The notes under the pieces were generated by a model. The model saw only the letters and a list, made by a program, of their open reading frames with translations, ran no database searches and had not been told where the DNA came from. DNA of 64,000 nucleotides from a virus: the IMG/VR virus record IMGVR_UViG_3300025138_000013; one strand, 5' to 3'. Below, piece after piece: positions 35,485 through 55,480 of the stretch (position 1 is its first letter; each line of letters starts with the position of its first letter). The position numbers and the translations under genes are program-made.

Positions 35485-35685
35485 ATGGGTATTAAAGTCG
35501 AAGGACATAGTCATCTTTACAGAGAAGAAACTTCTCATGCTATTATAAATACAGATATAGAACAATATAGATTACATAAAGTTAGAAAACAGAGGTTTTT
35601 AAATCAAAAAGATGAGATAAATACTCTTAAAAGTGAAGTAACAGAGATGAAATTGATGCTTCAACAATTATTGGATAGGACATAA
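35485..35685 (+). CDS. small coiled-coil protein
   Basis: KVEGHSHLYRE..SHAIIN...EINTLK.EV.EMK.ML; ATG at 35485. Confidence 0.65.
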   Translation: MGIKVEGHSHLYREETSHAIINTDIEQYRLHKVRKQRFLNQKDEINTLKSEVTEMKLMLQQLLDRT

Positions 35686-37316
35686 TGGCAAAAACAGTAG
35701 ACACATACTCAACTATTGAACAGTTTAGAACCAAATACAACGAATTAGCTGTTGATGTTGGTGATAAGTCTGGCCTAAGAACAGAAAATACTCAAACTGT
35801 AATAGATGCACTTAATAGTTTGGAAGATAAGTCATTCTTTTTCCAAGAGTTCATCTATACTGCAACAGCTGGTCAGACAACATACACTGGTGGTGACGAT
35901 TTTGCTAATGTACTTAGATTAAGACAAGATAGATTCCAAGTATTTAAAAATTCAACTCTATTACTAGAGGGTGCAGACTATTCTATATCCCAAGTAACTG
36001 GAAACATCTACTTTAGATTAGTTCTAACTAGTGGTGCATCAGCAGGTGACAAGGTTGTTATATATTCCTTCACAGGTTCATACTTAGGAACATCTACAAT
36101 CGGTGGTCAATCAGTTGGTTTCTTTACAGAGACCGCTGCAAATACAATTTTTAATAATAACGATAGTGGATTAATTTTAAATGGTAATTTTGCAGATGAT
36201 GCTAGCAGGGTAACTACTCTTACTGGTACAAATACAATTGAAATGTATGGTAAGACCTTCCATGATGGCGACTTTACAGTAGACACTGGACATACAATCA
36301 CCGCACCAACCTTTACGGACTCTACAGCAACGATTACAGGCGGTGTGGGTACAGGTTTTAATACTATAACCTCAACAATATTCATTGGTAACTTAAGTGG
36401 TACAACTGCAGCTTTGAGTTCAACGGTAACTGCTGGTGGAGACATTACTTCATCTACAGACATAATTGCTGGAAGTGAATTTGTAATCGGAAGTGCAAGA
36501 ATAGACCAAACAGATTTAGAAAAAATCGATGACCTAGTAAACGGAACTGTAAGTGCTAGTAAAGTAGTTGTAGTAGATTCAAATAAAGATATCACTGGAT
36601 TCAGAAACGTTGGTGCAACAGGTACCATTACTGCTGGTGGAGACATTACTTCATCTACAGATATAATTGCTGGTAGTGAATTCGTAATCGGAAGTGCAAG
36701 AGTAAGTGAGGCCGAACTAGAAATACTAGACGGTGCAACTTTATCTACTACAGAGATTAACTATCTTGACGGAACTACATTAGGAAACGTTGTTGCTAGT
36801 AAAGCAGTTGCAGTATCTTCAGATAAAGATATCACTGGATTTAGAAACATTACTGCAACAGGTACCATATCAACTAGTAGTGAACTAGACGGTGGTTCTT
36901 TAGATATCAGTGGTAATGCAGATATCGATGGTAACTTAGATGTAGGTGGTAACTTAACATTCAATGGTGTAACTTTCCAAGAATACGCACAGGACAAAGT
37001 ATCGGGTCTATTAAACCATGGTTCTCATACAAACATCACTGCAACTTATGACGATGCAGCTGATAAGATTCTACTTACTGGAGTTCCTACATATGGGGAT
37101 AACGATGTCGCTGCATTGACAGTTGGCGGTACTGGTATTACTGAAACATATACTGGAGATGGAAACTCTTTGACATTTGCTACAGACCCAGGCGATGGAT
37201 TGATACATAGTGGTAGTGGAGTATCAGATAAAATTAAATTGGATTATGAAGTGGTTTCTAATGCACCTTCGAGTGTAGGTAGTACAAAAGTGGGACACTT
37301 ATGGTTCGTGGTATAA
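35685..37316 (+). CDS. tail fibre protein 1
   Basis: G/T/S-rich with an internal duplication (TAGGDITSSTDIIAGSEFVIGSAR twice); C-terminal AP..(x7)GHLWF. Confidence 0.7.
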   Translation: MAKTVDTYSTIEQFRTKYNELAVDVGDKSGLRTENTQTVIDALNSLEDKSFFFQEFIYTATAGQTTYTGGDDFANVLRLRQDRFQVFKNSTLLLEGADYSISQVTGNIYFRLVLTSGASAGDKVVIYSFTGSYLGTSTIGGQSVGFFTETAANTIFNNNDSGLILNGNFADDASRVTTLTGTNTIEMYGKTFHDGDFTVDTGHTITAPTFTDSTATITGGVGTGFNTITSTIFIGNLSGTTAALSSTVTAGGDITSSTDIIAGSEFVIGSARIDQTDLEKIDDLVNGTVSASKVVVVDSNKDITGFRNVGATGTITAGGDITSSTDIIAGSEFVIGSARVSEAELEILDGATLSTTEINYLDGTTLGNVVASKAVAVSSDKDITGFRNITATGTISTSSELDGGSLDISGNADIDGNLDVGGNLTFNGVTFQEYAQDKVSGLLNHGSHTNITATYDDAADKILLTGVPTYGDNDVAALTVGGTGITETYTGDGNSLTFATDPGDGLIHSGSGVSDKIKLDYEVVSNAPSSVGSTKVGHLWFVV

Positions 37317-37322
37317 TATGAT

Positions 37323-39068
37323 ATGTCTGAAGAAATATTTGTAAATATAGAAACGGAAATCCAGCAACCGTACAATGCTCGAGTTCCAGTAAATGGTCAA
37401 GAACCAAACATTAGACAGACACAGTCTATCTATACAGCTGAATCTCGTCAGCCCTCAACATATCAATACAGGTCTCCACATATATACACTAGGCCTGTTT
37501 CTGCACAAGAACCAAACATAAGGAATGCAAGGTCACCCTTTACTTATGCAAGACAGGGTCAGACACCTACAATCTATCAACATCAAAGTCCATTCACATA
37601 TGCAAGACAAGCACTGCAACCAGCAACATATGATTTTCAGCAACCATATCCCTATATTGCAACTGCTCAAGAACCAAATGCAAGGTCTTTACAAACTTCT
37701 TATCCTTATATTGCAAATGCTAGACAGCCTGGGTTCTACCAACACCCTAGTCCATTCATATATCAAAACCCTGTAAATGCCCAAGAACCAAACATAAGAG
37801 ATACACAACAACCATATCCTTATATTGCAGTTGCTCAAGAAGCAAATCAAGTAGCTGCACAAGAACCTAATATACGTAATAAGCAGACACCGTTTACTTA
37901 TAATCATAGGTCACCATTCACTTACAGAAATCCAGTGAATAAACAAGAACCTAATATTAGAAACCAACAAGAACCTAATATAAGAAATCAGCAAGAACCT
38001 AATATTAGAAACAGTCAAACAGCGTTTACTTATAATCATAGGTCACCATTTACATATAGGAATCCTGTATCTGCACAACAACCTACTATTAAGAATGCAC
38101 AACAGCCTACTATTAAGAACCAACAGGAACCTAATATTAGAAATGCACAAGCAGCGTTTAATTATAATCATAGGTCACCGTCTACTTATCAGACTCCTGT
38201 TAATAAACAAAATCCTTATCCCTATAGTGCAAATTCTCAGACTGCTTTTACATATCAACATAGGTCACCATTTACTTATGCAAGACAGGGTCAAACACCA
38301 ACGACTTATAATGTACAGACACCAGCAACTACAAGTTCATCAACTCCAATAATTGCCCAACAACCTTCCATATATGATGGAGTGGATGGAGAGGATGCAC
38401 CAAACAATGCAGGCAACACTACTTGGGGCCCAGGCAACAGTGCAGCGATTCATATTAACGCGGGTCAATCTCAGTCAGGCCTCACAACAACAAATAGAAC
38501 TTGGGAAACAGTAAGAACTCATTCTTCAGCTAGTGAAACAAGTGGCAGTTGCTTAATGCGATTCGATTGGCAATCCAGTGGTACCAATGCATATTCAGTT
38601 AAAGCAAAATGGTATGCAGTCGATAGCGCAGCAATGGGCCCAGTTTATGAAGACTATATTAACTTCTATGGAGACTTCCAAGGTGATAGTCAAGATGGAG
38701 ATGGTATAGAGATATCTGCTAAATGGAATTCTAGTTCTGACTTTGATGACAGTAATTTTAGTGGTTCAGTTGAATTTCCAAATGATTCAGCTAACGAAAC
38801 TGGTGCAAAAGTTAAAAACCAATACTATATGATTTGGGATGGAGAACAAAATAGTGATAGTGCAACAGCGGTAGGGTTTAAGTGGTCTGCAAATTCTGGC
38901 AATAGTAACCAATCGGGTTCTTTAGGTTATTTGCAGTCTTCAAACGTTTCAATACAATTAAAAGTTGTGAATGGTAATGATTCGGGTAATCCTACTATCT
39001 ATACAACAAACCCAACGAATCAAATGATTCGATTGTCCATGGCTAAAGGTTCGGGGGCATTATTATAA
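37323..39068 (+). CDS. repeat filament protein A (about 335 aa of Pro-delimited modules plus a ~230-aa C-terminal globular domain)
   Basis: QEPNIR / YxHRSPFTY modules; module order is the mirror complement of ORF 39068. Confidence 0.8.
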   Translation: MSEEIFVNIETEIQQPYNARVPVNGQEPNIRQTQSIYTAESRQPSTYQYRSPHIYTRPVSAQEPNIRNARSPFTYARQGQTPTIYQHQSPFTYARQALQPATYDFQQPYPYIATAQEPNARSLQTSYPYIANARQPGFYQHPSPFIYQNPVNAQEPNIRDTQQPYPYIAVAQEANQVAAQEPNIRNKQTPFTYNHRSPFTYRNPVNKQEPNIRNQQEPNIRNQQEPNIRNSQTAFTYNHRSPFTYRNPVSAQQPTIKNAQQPTIKNQQEPNIRNAQAAFNYNHRSPSTYQTPVNKQNPYPYSANSQTAFTYQHRSPFTYARQGQTPTTYNVQTPATTSSSTPIIAQQPSIYDGVDGEDAPNNAGNTTWGPGNSAAIHINAGQSQSGLTTTNRTWETVRTHSSASETSGSCLMRFDWQSSGTNAYSVKAKWYAVDSAAMGPVYEDYINFYGDFQGDSQDGDGIEISAKWNSSSDFDDSNFSGSVEFPNDSANETGAKVKNQYYMIWDGEQNSDSATAVGFKWSANSGNSNQSGSLGYLQSSNVSIQLKVVNGNDSGNPTIYTTNPTNQMIRLSMAKGSGALL

Positions 39069-40240
39069 TGGCTATTGCTCAACAACCATATAGTTTACAA
39101 CAACCTACTATAGTTTCATATAGGATGCCTTCTATAGCAAGTAAACAGAATCCTTATCCATATATTGCAGCTGCAAGAGCACCTCATATTAGAGAAGCAA
39201 GACAGCCTTCTACATATGATAGACAAGGACAGACACCTACTACATATAGAAATCCAGTGAATGCACAAGAACCTAATATTAGAGAAGCAAGACAACCTAG
39301 TACATACCAACATAGAAGTCCTTTAACATATAGTCACAGGTCACCATTTACCTATCAACATAGGTCACCGTTCACTTATAGAAGTCCAGTGGATGCACAG
39401 GAACCAAACATAAGAGAGGCAAGACAACCTAATACATATAACCATAGAAGTCCTTTAACATATAGTCACAGGTCACCGTCTACGTATCAACATCAAAGTC
39501 CACTCACATATAGAAGTCCAGTGGATGCACAGCAACCAAACATAAGAGGTGCAAGACAACCTAGTTCGTATGAACATAGGTCACCGTTCACCTATGAGAC
39601 AAGAAGTCCATTTACATATGCAAGACAAGCAATAAGACAAGTTGCATATCAACATCAAAGTCCGTTCACTTATCAGAAATCTAGTAATGCACAAACAAAT
39701 GTTGTAAAGGCAAATCAAACACCATTTACGTATCAAAGAACTGGTCAACAACCAAGTATCTATCAACATAGAAGTCCATTTACGTATGCTAGACAAGGTC
39801 AACAACCAGCTATTGGTAACCGTGATGTACCTTATCCATATATTGCAATTGGAAATCAACCTGTTGCTAGGGATAAGCAATTACCTTATCCATATATTGC
39901 AGCTGGACAAACTCCGTCAACGTATAACCATAGAAGTCCGTTCACATATCAAAGCACAGTACAAGGACAAGAACCTAATATAAGAAATACACAATCACCT
40001 TTCTTCTATAATGCTGGTTCTCAGATATCATATCAACATCAAAGTCCGTTTACCTATCAAGTGACTTACTCACATCAAAGAGTCATACCTAGATATGCAA
40101 AAGTTAAAGGTGTATTCATTAATGATAATGGAACTCTGAAAAAGGTAGAAGAAGCTTATGTAAATGATGGTGGAACTGCAAAGAAAACACATCAATCTGT
40201 ACCGACTGCTCAGTTCCCATTTGGTGAGTTTGGTGCTTAA
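39068..40240 (+). CDS. repeat filament protein B (partner of A)
   Basis: Coupled to A by a TAATG overlap; C-terminal VFINDNG/AYVNDGG hairpin repeats. Confidence 0.8.
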   Translation: MAIAQQPYSLQQPTIVSYRMPSIASKQNPYPYIAAARAPHIREARQPSTYDRQGQTPTTYRNPVNAQEPNIREARQPSTYQHRSPLTYSHRSPFTYQHRSPFTYRSPVDAQEPNIREARQPNTYNHRSPLTYSHRSPSTYQHQSPLTYRSPVDAQQPNIRGARQPSSYEHRSPFTYETRSPFTYARQAIRQVAYQHQSPFTYQKSSNAQTNVVKANQTPFTYQRTGQQPSIYQHRSPFTYARQGQQPAIGNRDVPYPYIAIGNQPVARDKQLPYPYIAAGQTPSTYNHRSPFTYQSTVQGQEPNIRNTQSPFFYNAGSQISYQHQSPFTYQVTYSHQRVIPRYAKVKGVFINDNGTLKKVEEAYVNDGGTAKKTHQSVPTAQFPFGEFGA

Positions 40241-43951: not shown

Positions 43952-43959
43952 TATAAATA
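43952..43959 (+). promoter_or_regulatory. T4-type late promoter
   Basis: TATAAATA, 5 nt before ATG 43965. Confidence 0.75.
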
Positions 43960-43964
43960 GAACT

Positions 43965-44798
43965 ATGGCAACTCAATCTAAATTTTTAGCAGATGTAGGG
44001 ATACAAACAGCAGGAGATACATCCATAGGTGGGAATCTTGTTGTTACTGGTGACCTAACTGTTAACGGAACCAATACAATTATTGATTCTACAACCCAAT
44101 CGGTTACAGATTCATTGATAGAACTTGCAAGTGGTAATACAACTGCAGATACTATTGACATTGGTATATATGGTAACTATAATGACGGTCTAAGTGGAGA
44201 GGGTGGTGCAAGTGAATATACAGGTCTATTTAGAGACGCGTCAGACTCCACATGGAAGTTATTTGATGGTCTAGAAGTAGAACCTTCTACCACAGTTAAT
44301 ATGAGTGGTAGTGGTTATGCATTAGCAGACTTACATGTTGGTGACTTAGTTGCAACAACATTGACTGCAACAAATAGTTTAACAGGTGCAAGTATTACTT
44401 ACCCAACTTCAGATGGAAGTAGTGGTCAAGTATTAACTACAAATGGTAGTGGAACACTAACCTTTGCAACACCTACAGGTTTAGAAGGTGGAACAGTAAC
44501 GACTACATCAACCTCTGAAGCAACTATGGATACCTTTGCAACTGGCTCTTATAGAAGTGCAAAGTATGAAGTATCTATATCAGATTCAACAAGTGGAACG
44601 TATCAGTTCACAGAACTTTCAATAGTTCATAATGGAACAACTGCAAGTGTGTCTCAGTACGGTACAGTCCTTACAGGGAATTCAGAACTTGCAACATTTG
44701 GAGTAGATATCAATATAGGAACTCTAAGAATTAGAGCAACTTCTGCTTCTTCAAATTCAACCGTCTATAAATTTAAAAAGATTTTAGTAGATGTATAA
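43965..44798 (+). CDS. tail fibre segment
   Basis: GNL.VTGDL.VNGT, YTGLFRDASD..WKLF, C-terminal YRSAKY domain. Confidence 0.7.
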   Translation: MATQSKFLADVGIQTAGDTSIGGNLVVTGDLTVNGTNTIIDSTTQSVTDSLIELASGNTTADTIDIGIYGNYNDGLSGEGGASEYTGLFRDASDSTWKLFDGLEVEPSTTVNMSGSGYALADLHVGDLVATTLTATNSLTGASITYPTSDGSSGQVLTTNGSGTLTFATPTGLEGGTVTTTSTSEATMDTFATGSYRSAKYEVSISDSTSGTYQFTELSIVHNGTTASVSQYGTVLTGNSELATFGVDINIGTLRIRATSASSNSTVYKFKKILVDV

Positions 44799-44875
44799 AA
44801 TACGATACTTATGAGTGGGCAGAATCGATAAATAAATGTATCACCCCTCAAGGTAAACCTTAAAAGGACACATAA

Positions 44876-45094
44876 ATGGCAACACAAAATACATTCGTAA
44901 TTGAGTACGGACTTACAGTTGGTTCAACAGAAGTTATTTCCTCTGCAGGAAAACTAGCTGTATCAGCAATATCTTTACTTACTTCAGATAACTTAACGGA
45001 AGGTTCTTCGAACCAATACTTTACTTCAAGTAGATTTAACACTTCATTCGATACTAGATTATCAAATGCAGTTATTGATGGGGGTACAATCTAA
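44876..45094 (+). CDS. small fibre linker protein
   Basis: FVIEYGLTVG N-terminus like ORF 45094, LTEGSSNQYFT, C-terminal IDGGTI. Confidence 0.65.
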   Translation: MATQNTFVIEYGLTVGSTEVISSAGKLAVSAISLLTSDNLTEGSSNQYFTSSRFNTSFDTRLSNAVIDGGTI

Positions 45095-47985
45095 TGGCAG
45101 GAGAAAAGAATTTTATACTGAAGAACGGTTTATCCGTAGGAACAAATGATGTTCTAGATAGTTCGGGTGACTTAGTAGCAGGTGCATTTGGTACTGCAGC
45201 TATAGAGGTCATCGATGACCACGTTGCAAATACCTTACTAACAGCAGGTGCAGGCATTGGGCTTGCATATGATGACTCTGCTGGAACACTTACAATCACA
45301 GGACAAGTTGGTGATATTACAGGAGTTAACGCAGGACTTGGTTTAACTGGTACTGCAACTAGTGGAGATGCAACATTAAACATTGGTGCTGGTACAGGTA
45401 TTACTGTAAATGCAGATGACATTGCAATCAACTTTAAAGACGAAGATAATATGGCATCAGATAGTGCCGTACATGCAGCTACTCAACAATCAATTAAAGC
45501 ATATGTTGACACTCAAGTTGCAACAGTTCCAGTTGGAGACATAACAAGTGTTGTTGCTGGAGCAGGTTTAACAGGTGGTGGAACAAGTGGTGATGTAACA
45601 GTAAATGCTATTGCTGGAACAGGTATCACAGTTAATGCAGATAGTATTGAAGCTGATATGACTGCAATTAGAGCAAGTATCGATGGTGCAGACCTTGATA
45701 TGAGTGGTAACAAAGTATTATTTGGTAACATGTATGCTCAAGAAGCAGACTTACCAAGTGCAAGTACATATCATGGTATGTTTGCACATGTACATGGAAC
45801 AGGAGCAGGTTATTTTGCTCATGCTGGTGCATGGAAAAAATTACTAGATGAGTCTAGTTCAACAACTGCAAACTTAACAGAAAACACAAACCTGTATTAT
45901 ACAGATGCAAGAGCAGATGCAAGGATTACAAATGCACTTATAGATGAAGACGATTTCTCATCCAATAGTGCTACTAAGATTCCTTCACAACAATCTACAA
46001 AAGCATATATTGCTACACAGATTGCAACTAAAGATAATTCAGACGAAATTACAGAAGGTTCAAGTAACCTTTATCACACCACTGCAAGAGCAAGAGCATC
46101 TATAAGTGCTGGTGGTGACTTAGCATACAACAGTACAACTGGTGTAATGAGTTTCACAAACGATGCTGGAGATATTTCTTCAGTAGTTGCTGGTAACGGT
46201 TTAACTGGTGGTGCAACTACTGGTGACGCAACCTTGACGGTTGGTGCTGGTACAGGTATTACAGTTAACTCAACTAACGTTGCAGTTAATATGGGTGCAT
46301 TTGATTCAGATGACTTAAACGAAGGCTCAACTAATCTATATCACACTACAGAAAGAGTTCAAGATATTGCTGGAGCAATGTTCAGTTCAAATACTGAAAC
46401 AGGTATTGCAGTAACATATGACGATGCAGACGGAACAATAGACCTTGCAGTAGACGCAGAATTTATTTCAGATACAGTTGGTAACATGGTCACTTCTAAT
46501 ACAGAAAGTGGTCTTACAGTTACGTATCAAGATGCAGATAACACTTTAGACTTTGCAGTCGGAACACTTAACCAAGATACAACAGGATTAGCAGGAACTG
46601 CTACAGCACTTGCAAGTGCAAGAACTATCTCGGGTGTTTCATTTGACGGTACAGCAAACATCACACTAAACACTGGTGGAATCACAGAGAGTGGTAACCT
46701 TTACTTTACAAACGAAAGAGTGGATGACAGAGTTAATGCATTAATTGTTGGCGGAACAAACATAACTGCAACATACGATGATTCAGCTGGAACACTTACA
46801 ATTGACGGTAACGCAGCGGACATCACAGGTGTTACAGCTGGAGACGGTTTATCGGGTGGTGGTTCAAGTGGTACAGTTACTTTAAACCTAGATGCTTCAG
46901 TAGCAGGTGACGGTCTTGCACATTCAAGTGGTGTTCTATCAGTCGGAGTAGACGATAGTTCAATCGAAACAAATTCAGATGCATTAAGAGTTAAAGCACT
47001 TGGTGTTACTAATGCCATGTTAGCAGGTTCAATTGCAAACAGTAAACTTGCAAATGACAGTGTAACAATTAACTCACAGTCAGTAGACTTAGGTGCTTCA
47101 GTTACTTTAAACACATCTCACATTGGTGAGAGTGGTAACTTATACTTCACAGATGAAAGAGTTGACGATAGAGTTAACGCTTTAATTACTGCTGGTGTAA
47201 ACGTTGCAACAACATACGATGATTCAGCTGGAACACTAGAAATTAGAGTACCTTACGAAAACATTCAAGACACAGTTGGAACTCAATTTGCTACAAACGG
47301 TTCACACACAAACATAACTGCAACATACGATGATGCTGGTGACGGTGCAATTGACCTTTCAATTACAGATGCAACAATCAGAGCAAAACACTCTGCAGTT
47401 TCAAACGGAATTGGTGGACTAGCATATAGTACTTCGACAGGTGCATATACTTACACAGGGCCTTCTGCAACAGAAGTAAGAGCTCAACTAAGTGGTGGTA
47501 CTGGTGTTGCATACAGTGGTGGTGAATTCAGTATTGGACAGGCAGTTGCAACAACTAGTGATGTTACCTTTGCAGACGTATCTGCAAGTGGTAACCTTGT
47601 AGTTACAGGTAACTTGACAGTTAACGGTTCAACAGTAACAAATAGTTCAACTAACACAACAATCGAAGATTCATTGATTGAGTTAGGAAGTGGAACAACT
47701 GGTTCTCCATCGGGTGACGCAGGTATTGTCATTGAAAGAGGTGATGAAAGTAACGTGTTTATGGGTTGGGACGACAGTGCATCAAGTTTTGCATTCGGAA
47801 CAACTACTGCAACAGGTTCTTCAACTGGTGCATTAACAGTGACACCAGCAGCGGTATCTACAGGTGCATTGACAATAACAAATGCATCCAACAGTGGTGG
47901 AACTGCAAGAAATGTTTACCAATCAACATCGGCTCCAACAGGTGGGCAAGGTGCAGTTGGTGATATGTGGATTCTTTACTCCTAA
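45094..47985 (+). CDS. tail fibre protein 2 (long)
   Basis: GDIT.V.AG.GL.GG and EG..NLY.T..R repeats; C-terminal AP..(x6)GDMWI. Confidence 0.8.
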   Translation: MAGEKNFILKNGLSVGTNDVLDSSGDLVAGAFGTAAIEVIDDHVANTLLTAGAGIGLAYDDSAGTLTITGQVGDITGVNAGLGLTGTATSGDATLNIGAGTGITVNADDIAINFKDEDNMASDSAVHAATQQSIKAYVDTQVATVPVGDITSVVAGAGLTGGGTSGDVTVNAIAGTGITVNADSIEADMTAIRASIDGADLDMSGNKVLFGNMYAQEADLPSASTYHGMFAHVHGTGAGYFAHAGAWKKLLDESSSTTANLTENTNLYYTDARADARITNALIDEDDFSSNSATKIPSQQSTKAYIATQIATKDNSDEITEGSSNLYHTTARARASISAGGDLAYNSTTGVMSFTNDAGDISSVVAGNGLTGGATTGDATLTVGAGTGITVNSTNVAVNMGAFDSDDLNEGSTNLYHTTERVQDIAGAMFSSNTETGIAVTYDDADGTIDLAVDAEFISDTVGNMVTSNTESGLTVTYQDADNTLDFAVGTLNQDTTGLAGTATALASARTISGVSFDGTANITLNTGGITESGNLYFTNERVDDRVNALIVGGTNITATYDDSAGTLTIDGNAADITGVTAGDGLSGGGSSGTVTLNLDASVAGDGLAHSSGVLSVGVDDSSIETNSDALRVKALGVTNAMLAGSIANSKLANDSVTINSQSVDLGASVTLNTSHIGESGNLYFTDERVDDRVNALITAGVNVATTYDDSAGTLEIRVPYENIQDTVGTQFATNGSHTNITATYDDAGDGAIDLSITDATIRAKHSAVSNGIGGLAYSTSTGAYTYTGPSATEVRAQLSGGTGVAYSGGEFSIGQAVATTSDVTFADVSASGNLVVTGNLTVNGSTVTNSSTNTTIEDSLIELGSGTTGSPSGDAGIVIERGDESNVFMGWDDSASSFAFGTTTATGSSTGALTVTPAAVSTGALTITNASNSGGTARNVYQSTSAPTGGQGAVGDMWILYS

Positions 47986-48036
47986 TACAGGGGTTTAGAA
48001 TTCTAATAAATAACAGTATTATTAATGGATAACTAA

Positions 48037-49527
48037 ATGGCAACAGGTTCACAAAAGGTCAAAACACCAGCAGGTTGGAATTCAACTCAAGGTGCATGGG
48101 TAAAAACAGCTAGTTCCACATGGAAAGCAGTTGACCAAATCTATATTAAAACTCCTACAGGATGGAATAATGCGTCAGGGCAGACTGCAACTCAAGTTCC
48201 TTACCCATACATTGCAAATGGACAAGAACCCAATATAAGAAACAAACAGAATCCGTATCCTTATATTGCAAATGCACAAGAGCCTAACATAAGGAACAAA
48301 CAGAATCCTTATCCATACATTGCAAATGCACAAGAACCTAATATAAGAAGCCAACAACAACCGTATCCTTATATAGCACAAGCAAGACAACCTAGTACAT
48401 ACCAACATAGAAGTCCATTTACATATAGTAATGTTGGTCAACAACCTACTACTTATCAACATAGGTCACCGTTCACTTATAGGAATCCTGTAAATGCACA
48501 AGAGCCTAATATAAGGAATGCACAAACACCGTTCACTTACAGAAATCCAGTGAATGGACAAGAACCTAATATTAGAGATGCAAGACAGCCTGCAACTTAT
48601 CAACATAGGTCTCCTTTAACATACTCACATAGGTCACCATTTACCTATCAACATAGGTCTCCATTCACATATAGAAATCCAGTGAATGCACAAGAACCTA
48701 ATATTAGAAATGCAAGACAACCTTCTACGTATCAACATAGGTCACCGTTAACATATAGTCATAGAAGTCCTTTAACGTATACTCATAGGTCACCATTTAC
48801 ATATAGAAGTCCTGTATCTGCACAAGAGCCTAACATAAGAGAAGCAAGACAACCTTCTACGTATCAACATAGAAGTCCTTTAACATATAGTCATAGGTCA
48901 CCGTCTATTTACCAACATAGGTCACCATTTACATATAGAAGTCCTGTATCTGCACAAGAACCTAATATTCGTTCTGCACAACAACCGTATCCTTATATTG
49001 CAGCTGCACAACAACCTAATATTCGTGCTGCACAACAACCTACTATTAAGAACCAACAGGAACCTAATATTAGAAATAATCAGGCACCATTTACGTACAA
49101 TCATAGGTCACCGTTCACTTATAGGAATCCTGTATCTGCACAACAACCTAATATTCGTTCTGCACAAGAACCTAATATTAGAAGTTCACAAACACCATTT
49201 ACATATAGTGCAAGGTATCCAGCGAATGCACAGCAACCTTTTACATTCCAAGCACCATTTACGTACAGGAACCCTACTAACGCAAGGCAACCTAACAGTG
49301 CAAGGAACCCATTCACATATAGACAACCTTATATAGCGAATGGAAGACAACCAAATAGTGCAAGGAACCCATTCACATATAGAGTACCGTACATTGCAAA
49401 CGCAAGAACTGGAACACCCGCTAGGTCACCAAGTATTGCACAACAACCCTCAACGTACCAGCACAGAAGTCCATTTACATACTACTTTGCTTACGGTGGC
49501 GGAGGGCAGAATTTTTATGAACCATAA
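48037..49527 (+). CDS. repeat filament protein C
   Basis: N-terminal triple (V/I)KTxxxW motif, then more than 54 Pro-delimited modules that mirror ORF 49579. Confidence 0.8.
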   Translation: MATGSQKVKTPAGWNSTQGAWVKTASSTWKAVDQIYIKTPTGWNNASGQTATQVPYPYIANGQEPNIRNKQNPYPYIANAQEPNIRNKQNPYPYIANAQEPNIRSQQQPYPYIAQARQPSTYQHRSPFTYSNVGQQPTTYQHRSPFTYRNPVNAQEPNIRNAQTPFTYRNPVNGQEPNIRDARQPATYQHRSPLTYSHRSPFTYQHRSPFTYRNPVNAQEPNIRNARQPSTYQHRSPLTYSHRSPLTYTHRSPFTYRSPVSAQEPNIREARQPSTYQHRSPLTYSHRSPSIYQHRSPFTYRSPVSAQEPNIRSAQQPYPYIAAAQQPNIRAAQQPTIKNQQEPNIRNNQAPFTYNHRSPFTYRNPVSAQQPNIRSAQEPNIRSSQTPFTYSARYPANAQQPFTFQAPFTYRNPTNARQPNSARNPFTYRQPYIANGRQPNSARNPFTYRVPYIANARTGTPARSPSIAQQPSTYQHRSPFTYYFAYGGGGQNFYEP

Positions 49528-49578
49528 GCTGATGATACATATGAATAGTAATATAAAATTTAACAGGAATAATCTAAG

Positions 49579-50937
49579 ATGCCTATAGGTAATAGACAGC
49601 AACCCGCTAGCAGATTTGCTCAAACATCTGTCAATGTACAGACGCCTTCGATTGTGCAACAACCGTTTACATATAGTGCAAGATATCCAGCGAATGCACA
49701 GCAACCTTTTACATTCCAAGCACCATTTACGTATAATGCTAGATATCCAGCGAATGCACAACAACCGTTCACATTCCAAGCACCATTTACGTATAGGAAC
49801 CCTACTAACGCAAGACAACCAAATAGTGCAAGGAACCCATTTACATATAGACAACCGTACATTGCAAATGCAAGGCAACCTAATTCATACCAACATAGGT
49901 CACCATTTACGTACAGTTATGGGTCTCCATTTACATATAGGGTTCCTGTATCTGCACAAGAACCTAATATTCGTTCTGCAAGACAACCGAGTTCATATCA
50001 ACATAGAAGTCCTTTGACGTATTCACACAGGTCACCGTTTACGTATAGTCATAGGTCACCATTTACGTATGCTAGGCAAGGTCAAACACCGTTTACTTAT
50101 AATCATAGGTCACCATTCACTTACAGAAATCCAGTAAATGCACAAGAACCTAATATTAGAAGCAATCAGCAACCTAACATTAGAAGTCAACAAGAACCTA
50201 ATATTAGAAATGCACAAGCAGCGTTTACATATAACCATAGAAGTCCGTTCACTTATAGGAATCCTGTATCTGCACAAGAGCCTAATATTAGAAACCAACA
50301 AGAACCTAATATAAGAAATCAGCAAGAACCTAATATTAGAAACAATCAAGCACCATTTACGTACAATCATAGGTCACCGTCTACTTATCAGAATCCTAGT
50401 AATGCACAGGAACCTAATATTCGTTCTGCACAACAACCTAATATTAGAAGTCAACAAGAGCCTAATATTAGAAACAATCAGACACCGTTTACGTATAGTC
50501 ATAGGTCACCGTTTACTTATCAGAATCCTAGTAATGCACGTCAACCTTCTACGTATCAACATAGGTCGCCGTTCACTTATAGGAATCCTGTAAATGCACA
50601 AGAGCCTAATATTAGAAACAGAGATACTACATTCCCTTACATCGCAGTAGCCCAAGAACCTAATATAAGGAATGCACAAACACCGTTCACATATCAAAGA
50701 ACTGGTCAGTCACCTGTAATATATTCTCACAGGTCACCATTTACGTATGCTAGACAAGGTCAAACACCAACGACTTATAACCATAGAAGTCCGTTCACGT
50801 ATCAAAGAACTGGTCAAACACCAACGACTTATCAACATAGAAGTCCGTTTACATATAATAGAACTGGTCAAACGCCTGAAGCAAGATGGGATGGAGTGGT
50901 ATCACAACAGTGGCCTGCAACACCAATTACGTCATAG
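49579..50937 (+). CDS. repeat filament protein D (partner of C)
   Basis: Module string is the reverse complement of C. Confidence 0.8.
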   Translation: MPIGNRQQPASRFAQTSVNVQTPSIVQQPFTYSARYPANAQQPFTFQAPFTYNARYPANAQQPFTFQAPFTYRNPTNARQPNSARNPFTYRQPYIANARQPNSYQHRSPFTYSYGSPFTYRVPVSAQEPNIRSARQPSSYQHRSPLTYSHRSPFTYSHRSPFTYARQGQTPFTYNHRSPFTYRNPVNAQEPNIRSNQQPNIRSQQEPNIRNAQAAFTYNHRSPFTYRNPVSAQEPNIRNQQEPNIRNQQEPNIRNNQAPFTYNHRSPSTYQNPSNAQEPNIRSAQQPNIRSQQEPNIRNNQTPFTYSHRSPFTYQNPSNARQPSTYQHRSPFTYRNPVNAQEPNIRNRDTTFPYIAVAQEPNIRNAQTPFTYQRTGQSPVIYSHRSPFTYARQGQTPTTYNHRSPFTYQRTGQTPTTYQHRSPFTYNRTGQTPEARWDGVVSQQWPATPITS

Positions 50938-50960
50938 GAACCTACCCGACAGTGAACAAA

Positions 50961-50986
50961 GACCCCTCGAAAGAGGGGTTTTTTTT
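50961..50986 (+). terminator. rho-independent terminator
   Basis: GACCCCTC-GAAA-GAGGGGTT followed by a T tract. Confidence 0.9.
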
Positions 50987-51023: not shown

Positions 51024-52601
51024 ATGCAGAAAATTGAAACCCTAGAACAAGCAAAAGAATTAATAAAACCTTACGACCCTAAGATAACCTCACAAGAGAG
51101 ACAGGCCATAGGCAATTTTCATCTAGGTGCATTTAATATAGAACCAGGCTATTCAAAAACCTCAGAAAGTTATAAAATACTTGAATGGATGTTTGAAGAA
51201 ATTTTACCACCAGTAAAGATTGCAAAGTGGAAAGACTTTGAATATCTAAGAAAGGAAAATAGATTTGGTGGGTTCAATGGGTTAAGAAATGAGTCAGTAA
51301 CATATCATAAATTTTTACCAGTCGGTTATGCAGAGAAACCTAGAAAACCTATTCCAGGCGTAGCAGGTATGGACATGAAAGATTCCGATGGATATGTTAA
51401 TATAGATACATTAATTGATTGGGACTCAGTTGAAAACAGAGACGAACATGCAGAAGGGTCACTATTGTCTATGTACTATCACGGTGCAAAAGCACATTGG
51501 TTAATTCAAAGTATTCAAGAGGAAGGTTTAAGAGCTCCTATTCAAGGGTATGTTGTAGATAATGGTTCCAGTGGTATGAGTACTGAATCTAGTTACACAT
51601 TTAGAATACACCCAGGCTCTATTCGTTCGGGTGTCTTTGAAGAGATGCAAGATAATGATATGGAAATTATGGTAATAGATAATTTTGATGTTGTGAAAGT
51701 GGAACCATCAAGCCTTGACAGCGTATTACAGATGTGGTATAATAAGTTACAAAGACTTAATAAACCATTTCATTGTTCATTTACATATGTAGATGGTTGT
51801 ATTGAATACAATACTGCATTAATGGACTTAGATTTTAGAGATGAAGTACATGCATTTAACAAACAAGTTTATGAACTTGCAAAAGGTAAACCTCTAACAA
51901 TCTATATCGGACATGATAGTAGACATGGAGATTTGTCTAAGCTTTCTAAGTTTGCAATCCTAGAAAGTATTAAAAGCGGATTTGGTAATGGATGGATGCA
52001 TGACCAAATCAGATGGCAACCCGAAGTTAAAATACTTGACATTGCTGAGATTCCCGAGTATACTAGAGAATATGCAAATCAAAGTACTGAATTTACATAC
52101 AGTAGATTCTTAATACCTTATCTAGAGAACTATGAAGGATTTAGTATCTTTATTGATGACGATTTCATCTTTAAGAAAAGTATATTACCTATGTTTTATT
52201 ACTTAAACCCTAATGATGCTGTTGCATGTATACAATATCCACAATACAAACATGATGAAACAAAGTTTGATGGTGAAGTTAATATAGATTACCCTAAGAA
52301 GCTTTGGTCTAGTATGATGGTATTCAATAATGGACATGAAGACTGTAAGAAGCTAACACCCGAAGTTGTTAACACTTGGACAGGAAAACAGCTACATCAA
52401 TTTGAGTGGACAGATAAAATCTCTAAAATACCCGAACATTATATCTTTGTAGAAGGATATGATAACCATGAAGAAAAGTACAACTACAGTGGTATACATT
52501 ATACACGTGGTGGCCCATGGGTAAAAGGGATGGATTATTCAACCATAAATAATCTTGAAGACTTTTTAAAAGTGAAAAGAACATTGCCAATTGGCGATTA
52601 G
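51024..52601 (+). CDS. fusion of a ParB/Srx-like N-terminal domain and a GT-A glycosyltransferase
   Basis: C-half IYIGHDSR, STEFTYSRFLIPYL, FIDDDF, YPKKLWSS, LHQFEW, IHYTRGGPW; N-half KAHWLI..RIHPGSIR. Confidence 0.75.
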   Translation: MQKIETLEQAKELIKPYDPKITSQERQAIGNFHLGAFNIEPGYSKTSESYKILEWMFEEILPPVKIAKWKDFEYLRKENRFGGFNGLRNESVTYHKFLPVGYAEKPRKPIPGVAGMDMKDSDGYVNIDTLIDWDSVENRDEHAEGSLLSMYYHGAKAHWLIQSIQEEGLRAPIQGYVVDNGSSGMSTESSYTFRIHPGSIRSGVFEEMQDNDMEIMVIDNFDVVKVEPSSLDSVLQMWYNKLQRLNKPFHCSFTYVDGCIEYNTALMDLDFRDEVHAFNKQVYELAKGKPLTIYIGHDSRHGDLSKLSKFAILESIKSGFGNGWMHDQIRWQPEVKILDIAEIPEYTREYANQSTEFTYSRFLIPYLENYEGFSIFIDDDFIFKKSILPMFYYLNPNDAVACIQYPQYKHDETKFDGEVNIDYPKKLWSSMMVFNNGHEDCKKLTPEVVNTWTGKQLHQFEWTDKISKIPEHYIFVEGYDNHEEKYNYSGIHYTRGGPWVKGMDYSTINNLEDFLKVKRTLPIGD

Positions 52602-53897: not shown

Positions 53898-54783
53898 ATT
53901 TACATGTTATGATAAAGAAACCACAGAGAATTGGAAACCAGTTCTAGCAAAGAAACTAGTTCCCGATTGGTGGAAGACTATGAAAGTTCAAGAGAATGTT
54001 CGTGGTCATAAAACTCAGACTATAAGGTCATGTCCTGCTATGGATGACTGGTTAAAGACTGGGTGGTATCTTTGTGCAAAGAAAGACATGAAAGTATTTG
54101 TAAGTGAACATTCTAGTAAATCAAGAACAGACCCACAAGACAGACTTTCATCACCAACACATCCAGCTGGACAAGCAGGTCATCAATTTACTTACTTATC
54201 TAAAGAAGATGCACCAACAAAAGATGCATTCAAAATGAAAGCACCATGGAATATTATTACTCCGCCAGGCTATTCTTGTCTATACCTAGACCCCTTTCTA
54301 TTTCAAAATAAGTATTTTGCAACATGGCAAGGTATGATTGATACAGATGCATTTAATGTGAATATGGATAACTCTCAGATTATTTTCTATCCTAAAACGA
54401 ATAAAGACTTTACAATTAAAGCTGGAACACCATTGGTTCAAATCATTCCATACAGAAGAGAAGATTGGACAGCATCATATATAACTTATGACAATAAATC
54501 GTGGCAAGAAAATAGGTCAGTTAGAACTACTCATAGAGTAGGTGAAGATGGTGGTAAGTTAAAAACAATGGATGAGTGGAATAGGTCACCCGAACTTAGA
54601 GAAGAGAAGAGGCATATCGAAGGAATGGCAGGTGCCTATAGAAGAATTAAGTATTGGAATGAGAAGGGAAGAATGTTTAAAGAAGAGAATCCACCACCCG
54701 AGTGTCCTATGCATAATCCCGATTTAGTAGAACATAAAGCAGAAGTGCAGTTGGATTTATTTGGAGACCAAGATGACAGTTAG
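53878..54783 (+). CDS. conserved phage protein (DUF6065-like)
   Basis: PDWWK, RSCPAM.D....GW, PW.IITPPGYS, G.IDTD, IKAGTPLVQIIP. Confidence 0.6.
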   Translation: MKMPTIEFTCYDKETTENWKPVLAKKLVPDWWKTMKVQENVRGHKTQTIRSCPAMDDWLKTGWYLCAKKDMKVFVSEHSSKSRTDPQDRLSSPTHPAGQAGHQFTYLSKEDAPTKDAFKMKAPWNIITPPGYSCLYLDPFLFQNKYFATWQGMIDTDAFNVNMDNSQIIFYPKTNKDFTIKAGTPLVQIIPYRREDWTASYITYDNKSWQENRSVRTTHRVGEDGGKLKTMDEWNRSPELREEKRHIEGMAGAYRRIKYWNEKGRMFKEENPPPECPMHNPDLVEHKAEVQLDLFGDQDDS

Positions 54784-55480
54784 ATTAGCATTCCCTACAT
54801 TTATATTTGAAAGAGATGTACTTGACAAAAAGTATGGTAATGCTTCAGTATCAAAAGAATACTTAACATCCCTTAAGAATGAGATGGATGCATGGAGACA
54901 AAGAGACCCAAAAGGTAGACAAATATCAAACAGATATACTGGTTGGCAGTCTCAAGATGGTGTAGAAAAACATCCAGCCTTTCAAAAGATTATTAGATGT
55001 ATTGAAGCTGCATTGAGAGATGAAGTGCAACAATTCTTTAGAGTTCATCCCGACGATTCACAAATCAAAATAGATAATACATGGGCAAACATAAATGATA
55101 AAGGTGCATGGAATACACCACATTTACACAATGGTTGTTGGTATAGTGGAGTCTTTTACGTACATGGAGACGGTGATGAAGGTAACCTTCAACTAATCAA
55201 TACAGACCCGAAGGTAGTTGCAGACCATCCTACTAACGCTAGAATGCACGAGAGTATGGGATATGGGCCTGTTACTGGAAGACTTATAATGTTTCCTAGT
55301 GGTGCAATGCATATGGTAGAACCCAATCCTACAGACAAAGAAAGATACTCAATTTCATTCAATTGTAGAGTACAACAAATAACAAATAGTCGTGAAAGAA
55401 GAGACCCTCAAGGGAATCCACCTCATGAGAATGAATTTACTTTTGAATTAGATGAATTAGGCAACCCCACACTGAACTAA
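54773..55480 (+). CDS. 2OG-Fe(II) oxygenase (TIGR02466-like)
   Basis: FPT.IF, WANIN..G.WN.PHLH..CWYSGVFYV, G.LIMFPS..MH.V.PN....RYSISFN; likely ATG near 54773. Confidence 0.8.
   Translation: MTVRLAFPTFIFERDVLDKKYGNASVSKEYLTSLKNEMDAWRQRDPKGRQISNRYTGWQSQDGVEKHPAFQKIIRCIEAALRDEVQQFFRVHPDDSQIKIDNTWANINDKGAWNTPHLHNGCWYSGVFYVHGDGDEGNLQLINTDPKVVADHPTNARMHESMGYGPVTGRLIMFPSGAMHMVEPNPTDKERYSISFNCRVQQITNSRERRDPQGNPPHENEFTFELDELGNPTLN

Follow-up and report, generated by a model that had tools for sequence, protein, structure and literature searches.

Two neighbouring genes, C and D, of the IMG/VR virus record IMGVR_UViG_3300025138_000013 encode proline-periodic proteins whose strings of short modules mirror each other: when C is read forwards and D backwards, modules of equal length and opposite class face one another. 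The same mirror code is conserved in homologous gene pairs, in which the lengths of the two partners have changed together and residues in facing modules covary. Both genes lie in the 64,000-nucleotide (nt) stretch of DNA analysed here (the window), which is the late structural region of a marine T4-like myophage whose tail sheath shares 45-49% identity with the sheaths of the Pelagibacter phages HTVC008M and Mosig and of Methylophilales phage Melnitz. Judged from these sequence patterns, C and D are probably two chains of one elongated, heteromeric antiparallel structure, the register of which would be set by the module code. Genes A to D and the mapped elements of their units described below are located on the + strand, as are the 963-aa, GT8-like and PF13640 genes.

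Complementary module strings in C and D

C is an open reading frame (ORF) of 496 amino acids (aa) at 48037-49527 and D is an ORF of 452 aa at 49579-50937; the two share strand and frame. The original prediction, made from the letters of the window, had given these coordinates and sizes, and an ORF check bears them out. Proline accounts for ~13% of the residues in both proteins, and glycine for 8-14 of about 450-500 residues (2-3%). Cutting at the periodic prolines had been said to yield almost exclusively modules of 6, 8 or 10 aa, and 85-90% of the modules do have these lengths when a YP dipeptide is joined to the next 8-mer to give a 10-mer. The modules can be divided into two classes according to positions 2-3: T modules have an x-[T/I/S]-[Y/F] start (for example xTYxHRSP, FTYRNP and FTYxRxGQxP), and all others are N modules (for example NIRxxQxP, VNAQEP and YPYIAxxQxP).

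The mirror relation is apparent from the prolines, whose positions in C can be cross-correlated with those in reversed D without any tokenising. At a single ungapped antiparallel offset, where residue c of C faces residue 488-c of D, 54 of the 59 prolines in D stand opposite a proline in C; the runner-up offset gives 34 coincidences and the best forward orientation 33. Shuffling the order of the D modules, a check proposed together with the original prediction, yields 19.2 +/- 2.8 coincidences with a maximum of 30. Every facing interval in this register is equal in length, and two apparent double intervals are sites at which D has lost a boundary proline (P to A and P to T). The uninterrupted run of identical module lengths claimed earlier exists, with 53 modules (C residues 56-451, ~396 aa) instead of 54: at the 54th position a 10-mer of C faces an 8-mer of D, their classes still being opposite. 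All six pairing rules proposed between module types are present in the register, as is the worked example in which a C segment beginning NIRNARQP faces reversed D.

Length and class can be separated by permuting D modules only within equal lengths, which leaves the length string fixed. Under this null, 29.1 +/- 3.7 facing modules are equal in length and opposite in class (maximum 44 in 20,000 permutations), whereas the actual C/D register has 54 of 56. Counted by residue, opposite-class pairing amounts to 392 of 452 for C with D and to about half, which is near chance, in parallel, self or wrong-paralogue pairing. The super-repeats of the two proteins are true complements, T6 N6 N8 T8 T8 T8 in C and T6 N6 N8 N8 N8 T8 in D. 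Since the modules follow one another irregularly, all pairs are satisfied in one register only, which is thus determined by the sequence itself.

Nucleic acids do not account for the mirror pattern. C and D do not form an inverted repeat in the DNA, the two genes sharing merely two 15-nt inverted matches, and the antisense translations of C and D bear no relation to the respective partner. Antiparallel base complementarity between the genes, calculated for all offsets over 48037-50934, peaks at 36.5%, 6 nt off the protein register, and pairing at this peak reaches 45% when G-U is counted. Because synonymous-codon shuffling reproduces the peak (35.2 +/- 0.6%), the latter is a by-product of amino acids and codon usage.

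Conservation and covariation in homologous pairs

A search of IMG/VR with C gave 78 loci, which contain 54 distinct pairs among marine viral contigs. C represents the upstream ('X' type) partner, with homologues in 78 viral contigs, and D the downstream ('Y' type) partner, which is present in every complete locus; each of these loci has two adjacent same-strand, proline-periodic ORFs (295-739 aa and 238-584 aa). For comparison, each upstream protein was aligned with its neighbour, the class string of which had been reverse-complemented, and the extra proline of the YP dipeptide, which aliases the register, was masked. Forty-seven of the 54 distinct pairs align without internal gap, over spans of 214-539 aa that comprise about 30 different lengths. 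A new matched length can arise only if both genes change, and many mirrored length changes must therefore have occurred. The expectation that a module insertion or deletion in one gene is mirrored in the other thus holds for these 47 pairs and fails in five singleton contigs, which are one-sided (discussed below). Other apparent gaps are explained by a non-ATG start of the D homologue, by a small extra ORF between the pair or by a frameshifted contig. An ORF of ~85 aa lies between the partner genes in L020, L021, L023, L034, L035 and L072, where the C-terminus of the upstream protein is extended by a stretch that has no paired counterpart. No single-gene fused form of the pair longer than 868 aa was found. 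The C/D family is a natural example of compensatory repeat-number co-evolution in two genes.

Across the 54 distinct pairs, 2,372 of 2,571 boundary prolines coincide (92%), and 13,766 residues lie in opposite-class modules versus 660 in same-class modules. T stands opposite N in 1,996 of 2,108 facing 6-, 8- and 10-mers (95%), and the 4-mer module pair FTYP/ARQP, which occurs in some lineages, obeys the same class rule. The median fraction of partner prolines that coincide is 0.90 for cognate pairs versus 0.48 for non-cognate natural pairs, and the cognate partner ranks top in 46 of the 54. In L047, L048 and their relatives, which have the FTYP-ARQP pair, each partner also contains an array of eleven 10+8 units, and the complementarity is still perfect.

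The window harbors a second pair that follows the rules of C and D. Gene A (37323-39068, 581 aa) carries in its N-terminal ~350 aa repeats that are antiparallel to those of its partner, gene B (39068-40240, 390 aa); the two face each other at one ungapped offset over ~320 aa, and the register persists through stretches of proline loss. Three diverged A/B-type pairs on other contigs (52-73% identity) show 30-36 coincident boundary prolines, versus 15-19 at the next offset. The A/B and C/D pairs have no full-length complementarity to each other.

At the residue level, mutual information calculated over unique facing pairs locates the covariation at odd positions along the anti-diagonal. The excess information in 8-mers is 0.81 bit for T1-N5, 0.57 for T1-N7, 0.67 for T5-N3 and 0.55 for T7-N1, and in 6-mers it is 0.68 bit for T1-N3; shifting the partner by one or two modules lowers the excess to about 0.1-0.3 bit or less. 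Side-chain volumes compensate each other, F occurring with A or G (640 cases in 8-mers) and L with Q. Further rules place S, A or T opposite N, S, K or Q, and V, A or R opposite Y (in 6-mers), while H or Y faces R, an aromatic-Arg pairing, and N or A faces A. Module sub-types are selective as well: the partner of the His-Arg-Ser type is of the NIR type in 505 cases, and that of the Asn/Ala-Arg type is of the YIA type in 324, with 32 and 0 cases of the cross combinations. Such volume-compensating covariation between facing residues speaks for X and Y chains touching each other directly through their side chains.

Proposed structure and alternative explanations

The original prediction had C and D associating as an antiparallel heteromer whose register is set by the module code. 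At the sequence level, such a putative association is strongly supported by the mirrored lengths in ~50 pairs, by cognate specificity and by the volume-compensating covariation. C and D would lie side by side in opposite directions, residue c of C beside residue about 488-c of D. Each chain would be a string of extended modules that are 4, 6, 8 or 10 residues long, end in a proline and belong either to class T, with an aromatic x-T-Y start, or to class N, small and polar and starting with NIR, VNA or YIA. A T module would always face an N module of the same length, with specific sub-types (His-Arg-Ser with NIR, Ala/Asn-Arg with YIA).

The spacing of the prolines constrains the geometry. A proline every 4-10 residues excludes helices, and the equal numbers of residues in facing modules imply the same rise per residue in both chains. 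In addition, Pro-Pro spacing is even in 94.7% of 4,747 cases. Together with the equal residue numbers and the odd-odd covariation, this is consistent with the pattern of a two-stranded antiparallel beta-ladder, and the most likely geometry would be a two-stranded antiparallel beta-ribbon. Whether a residue of an antiparallel beta-ladder is odd- or even-numbered determines on which face its side chain lies and which way its backbone NH points; with even module lengths, every proline would thus face outward, along the edge that is not hydrogen-bonded. Prolines at edges are well established as a negative design that keeps sheets from extending. Across the strands, the side chains at odd positions would be packed against each other, large against small and Arg against His or Tyr. 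As to stoichiometry, the chains may be bundled, possibly as three X plus three Y chains in the manner of a split T4 gp37 needle. Judged from gene context, C and D probably build a virion fibre that belongs to the host-recognition cluster and would measure about 130 nm if fully extended.

The layout of the two proteins suggests a polarity. C begins with a Trp-rich non-repeat domain (aa 1-55, 48037-48201) that has many invariant columns in 23 homologues, continues with the paired repeat region of 53 modules (aa 56-451, 48202-49389) and ends in a tail with poly-Gly at the gene-junction, or 'turn', end (aa 452-496, 49390-49524). A spacer of 51 nt with five TAA/TAG stops (49528-49578) separates the genes, and a Shine-Dalgarno-like AGGA is found ~12 nt 5' of the D start. 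The paired repeat region of D, delimited by the mirror register, comprises aa 37-432 (49687-50874) and is followed by a conserved C-terminal tail with invariant R, W, D, W and P (aa 433-452, 50875-50934). The conserved termini, that is, the N-terminal domain of C and the C-terminal tail of D, map to one and the same end of the mirror register. It is proposed that the C domain sits at the 'open' end of the duplex; the C N-terminus and D C-terminus together would probably form the attachment end, and the gene-junction end would be a turn or tip. Module strings also reveal palindromic, self-complementary blocks in C (aa 388-439, 49198-49353) and in D (aa 30-101, 49666-49881), the C block being directly homologous to the block at the D start.

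The presumed tip of A/B would carry a folded domain. The C-terminal ~230 aa of A (38355-39065) form an all-beta sandwich in the AlphaFold2 model of full-length A (predicted local distance difference test, pLDDT, about 75), and A-like proteins keep this domain down to about 30% identity. The sandwich sits at the turn end of A/B, where a receptor-binding tip would be expected. It has no PDB match at E <= 0.001 in Foldseek, and a wide VIA-align search gave a best Z of 4.6, with generic beta-sandwiches only. Between the N-terminal domain of C and the C-terminal domain of B, similarity is not significant.

Many C homologues run on past the poly-Gly into a Hint/intein-like domain with a Gly-Cys junction (PF14890, PF01079, PF14623), including the upstream proteins of L024, L031, L032, L033, L056, L060 and L076; C of the window ends just after the poly-Gly, without a Hint domain. 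Such a domain is placed at the end that faces the N-terminus of the partner, and it might self-cleave after assembly or join in a covalent link.

Several points weigh against a paired beta structure of C and D. First, L001, L003, L015, L049 and L067 carry a difference in only one of the two partners, which amounts to exactly one unit or two units of the tandem repeat (44 or 18 aa). Each of these singletons has a near-identical, perfectly matched relative, and three such relatives each occur in several contigs; the singletons are either products of short-read assembly, in which repeats collapse or expand, or real slippage variants, the intermediates of compensatory evolution. Second, the covariation is inflated by shared ancestry and repeat duplication, of which the shifted-partner control removes only part. 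Third, a proline every 6-10 residues is unusual in regular beta-sheet. Fourth, both paired regions are strongly basic (net +33 in 48202-49389 and +31 in 49687-50874, with 45-46 Arg each and no Lys in D), which should oppose close pairing unless the charge is compensated, for example by Arg-aromatic stacking, modification or an anionic ligand. Finally, the nearest isolates, HTVC008M and Mosig, lack a D homologue, and the pair is known from genes of uncultured phages alone. The basic character of the paired regions may also matter for cell-surface binding.

One alternative is that D pairs with C in the same register during assembly only, as a chaperone or length ruler that is absent from the finished structure. 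Such a transient template differs from stable pairing only in its duration, and all the covariation evidence fits it equally well; T4 has fibre chaperones, gp38 and gp57A (PMC6957217), and proteins of this kind are often encoded beside fibre genes. A stoichiometric, full-length template would nevertheless be a costly chaperone, and a partner as long as its client, whose conserved far terminus co-locates with the conserved terminus of that client, is hardly what a transient role predicts. We regard this explanation as improbable.

No better placed is the idea that C and D build separate homo-oligomeric fibres, for instance parallel trimers, which are packed in opposite directions or line a third partner such as the 963-aa protein encoded upstream. 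Volume-compensating covariation at specific facing positions points instead to direct X-Y contact, a strict T-opposite-N rule would be needless for a common third partner, and self-pairing scores at chance. The idea draws its appeal from precedent and position: most known phage fibres are parallel homotrimers, gp37 being a trimer (PMC6957217), and a fibre-like gene precedes the pair in 76 of 78 loci.

It is very unlikely that the proteins are disordered, proline-punctuated spacers that never pair, the mirror being a by-product of repeat evolution. The composition is of low complexity and the repeats of A, modelled as a lone chain in AlphaFold2, are unstructured (pLDDT about 28), as this explanation would have it. 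It leaves unexplained, however, the ~30 matched lengths and a covariation specific to the facing module, all without an inverted DNA repeat, and we know of no mutational process that reverses module order and swaps class between same-strand genes. A nucleic-acid origin can practically be dismissed; it would make the protein pattern secondary, either to a long hairpin of the two coding regions in mRNA or DNA or to D having arisen by inverted copying of C. The complementarity peak does fall only 6 nt from the protein register, but its Watson-Crick pairing, even with G-U added, is far below that of a duplex, the peak is reproduced when synonymous codons are shuffled, and neither the two short inverted matches nor the antisense translations relate C to D.

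With stable antiparallel pairing of C and D as the preferred explanation, we lean towards a broader one as well: a natural protein 'duplex' with a complementary digital alphabet (two classes, four lengths and sub-type pairs), in which module order and not a folded interface specifies partner and register, in which A/B and C/D are orthogonal duplexes, and in which length evolves by compensatory unit insertion. If true, proteins would here recognise each other by a new principle, which would also supply a programmable scaffold ready for use and add a new fibre architecture to host recognition in a very abundant marine phage group. For protein designers it would provide orthogonal, length-programmable beta heterodimer modules in dozens of natural variants.

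Genome context and comparison with known systems

The pair is embedded in a conserved neighbourhood. A T4-type late-promoter core, TATAAATA, is located at 43952-43959, 5' of a gene for a 277-aa protein, and is the probable start of a unit that comprises the 277-aa gene, the 963-aa gene, C and D. The 963-aa protein (45094-47985) is Gly/Thr/Ser-rich and fibre-like; in 76 of 78 loci its gene immediately precedes the pair. Directly 3' of D there is a hairpin resembling an intrinsic terminator, with an 11-bp stem and a T run (50958-50983). Two late units of the window, 35544-40240 and 43952-50983, each contain TATAAATA, a fibre-like protein (543 and 963 aa, respectively) and a mirror-coded pair; they look paralogous because the 543-aa gene, 5' of A, and the 963-aa gene share a conserved repeat motif (E 4e-5).

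Downstream of the pair, a GT8-like glycosyltransferase gene (51024-52601) follows directly in 76 of 78 loci, and a 2OG-Fe(II) oxygenase gene (PF13640, 53193-53897) is also conserved. The GT8-like gene and two 2OG-Fe(II) oxygenase genes, the second at 54761-55480, accompany the pair on its 3' side in 69-76 of 78 loci; genes of this kind are absent next to A/B. Prolyl 4-hydroxylases belong to PF13640. The downstream enzymes might hydroxylate or glycosylate the periodic prolines or threonines, an idea offered only as a lead. In this pelagimyophage-like phage, the C/D region is the counterpart of the hypervariable 'host recognition cluster' that has been described in pelagimyophages (PMC7029224), a paper in which proteins of the C/D type are not mentioned.

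Pfam and PHROGs contain no family for the pair proteins, apart from one borderline Pfam match: 27 residues of C (48487-48567) match Cementoin (PF10511) with 27.4 bits against a cut-off of 27, and A, B and D have no hit. The match is probably compositional. Cementoin consists of hexapeptide repeats that are transglutaminase substrates, and the N modules are Gln-rich. Among PDB chains there is no match at E <= 0.01 with either a single sequence or the family profile, in the ESM Atlas every score is within the chance range, and tblastn of C and of the C-terminal domain of A against isolate phages gives no match. Homologues in public protein clusters are named 'hypothetical' only. Complex prediction for C 1-245 with D 243-452 (alignments A1 and A2) gave a score of 0.00, the partner's own fold being uncertain, and this result weighs neither way on binding. 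For a read-through chain (C 310-496, the stops as Gly, and D 1-178, with 15 homologous in-frame junctions), AlphaFold2 gave an uninformative model with a pLDDT of 37 and no secondary structure. In the literature no description of such paired proteins was found, which is weak evidence given that most subscription journals lie outside the coverage.

Among known systems, the gp37 needle of T4 resembles the proposed structure in its topology. The needle, an elongated and slender beta structure located distally on T4-type fibres, comprises domains D10-D11 (PDB 2XGF), of which D10 is formed by residues 811-881 plus 1010-1026; the chains run out to the tip and back, so that antiparallel segments result with both ends at the proximal collar, and the receptor-binding part is located at the turn (PMC6957217). 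It is the product of a single gene, a homotrimer with seven His-coordinated iron sites (PMC6957217). C and D would share this out-and-back topology if the turn corresponds to the gene junction, which is exactly where the beta-sandwich of A is found. Unlike in gp37, the two halves are split over two genes with no fused form, the paired part is 5-10 times longer and has an explicit two-class module code, and HxH motifs number 0 in A, B, C and D, His occurring once per T8 module. Moreover, the pair proteins show no sequence similarity to domains of gp37, gp12 or gp10, or to any solved chain.

Long antiparallel rods of two segments also occur in the coiled-coil arms of SMC/Rad50-type proteins and in alpha/beta-spectrin, which are helical and built of heptad or 106-residue repeats. 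As in these rods, the halves of the C/D structure must match in length, so changes are mirrored over evolution. However, unlike SMC/Rad50 arms, spectrin and fibritin, the pair proteins have a proline every 4-10 residues, no heptad-compatible helix and a binary complementary alphabet. The stalk of streptococcal antigen I/II is a single chain in which an Ala-rich helix winds antiparallel with a Pro-rich polyproline-II helix, the numbers of repeats being matched. As proposed for C and D, two repeat types are paired antiparallel into a long stalk, but the stalk repeats differ in residue number (helix versus polyproline-II), whereas facing modules of C and D are equal.

In the tandem beta-zipper, disordered fibronectin-binding repeats of bacteria add an antiparallel strand along the F1 modules of host fibronectin. 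The order of motifs is matched to the order of modules, as in C and D; in contrast to the zipper, both partners here are repeat chains, encoded by adjacent phage genes, with reciprocal classes in both. Very short periodic units, finally, are shared with the triple-stranded beta-helix of T4 gp5 (octapeptides) and with collagen heterotrimers (triplets), which are Gly-based and have parallel chains, the register of collagen heterotrimers being set by sequence. C and D differ from collagen-like fibres in the absence of Gly-X-Y triplets and in their periods of 4, 6, 8 and 10 instead of 3. From the gp5 beta-helix they differ in an 8-mer consensus that lacks V-x-G and has proline at position 8, and in an antiparallel arrangement of two complementary classes. 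If the chains pair, the result would be a sequence-coded, register-specific association of ~400 residues, closer to base pairing than any known protein interface; in none of these nearest known concepts do both chains use a two-class module alphabet reciprocally.

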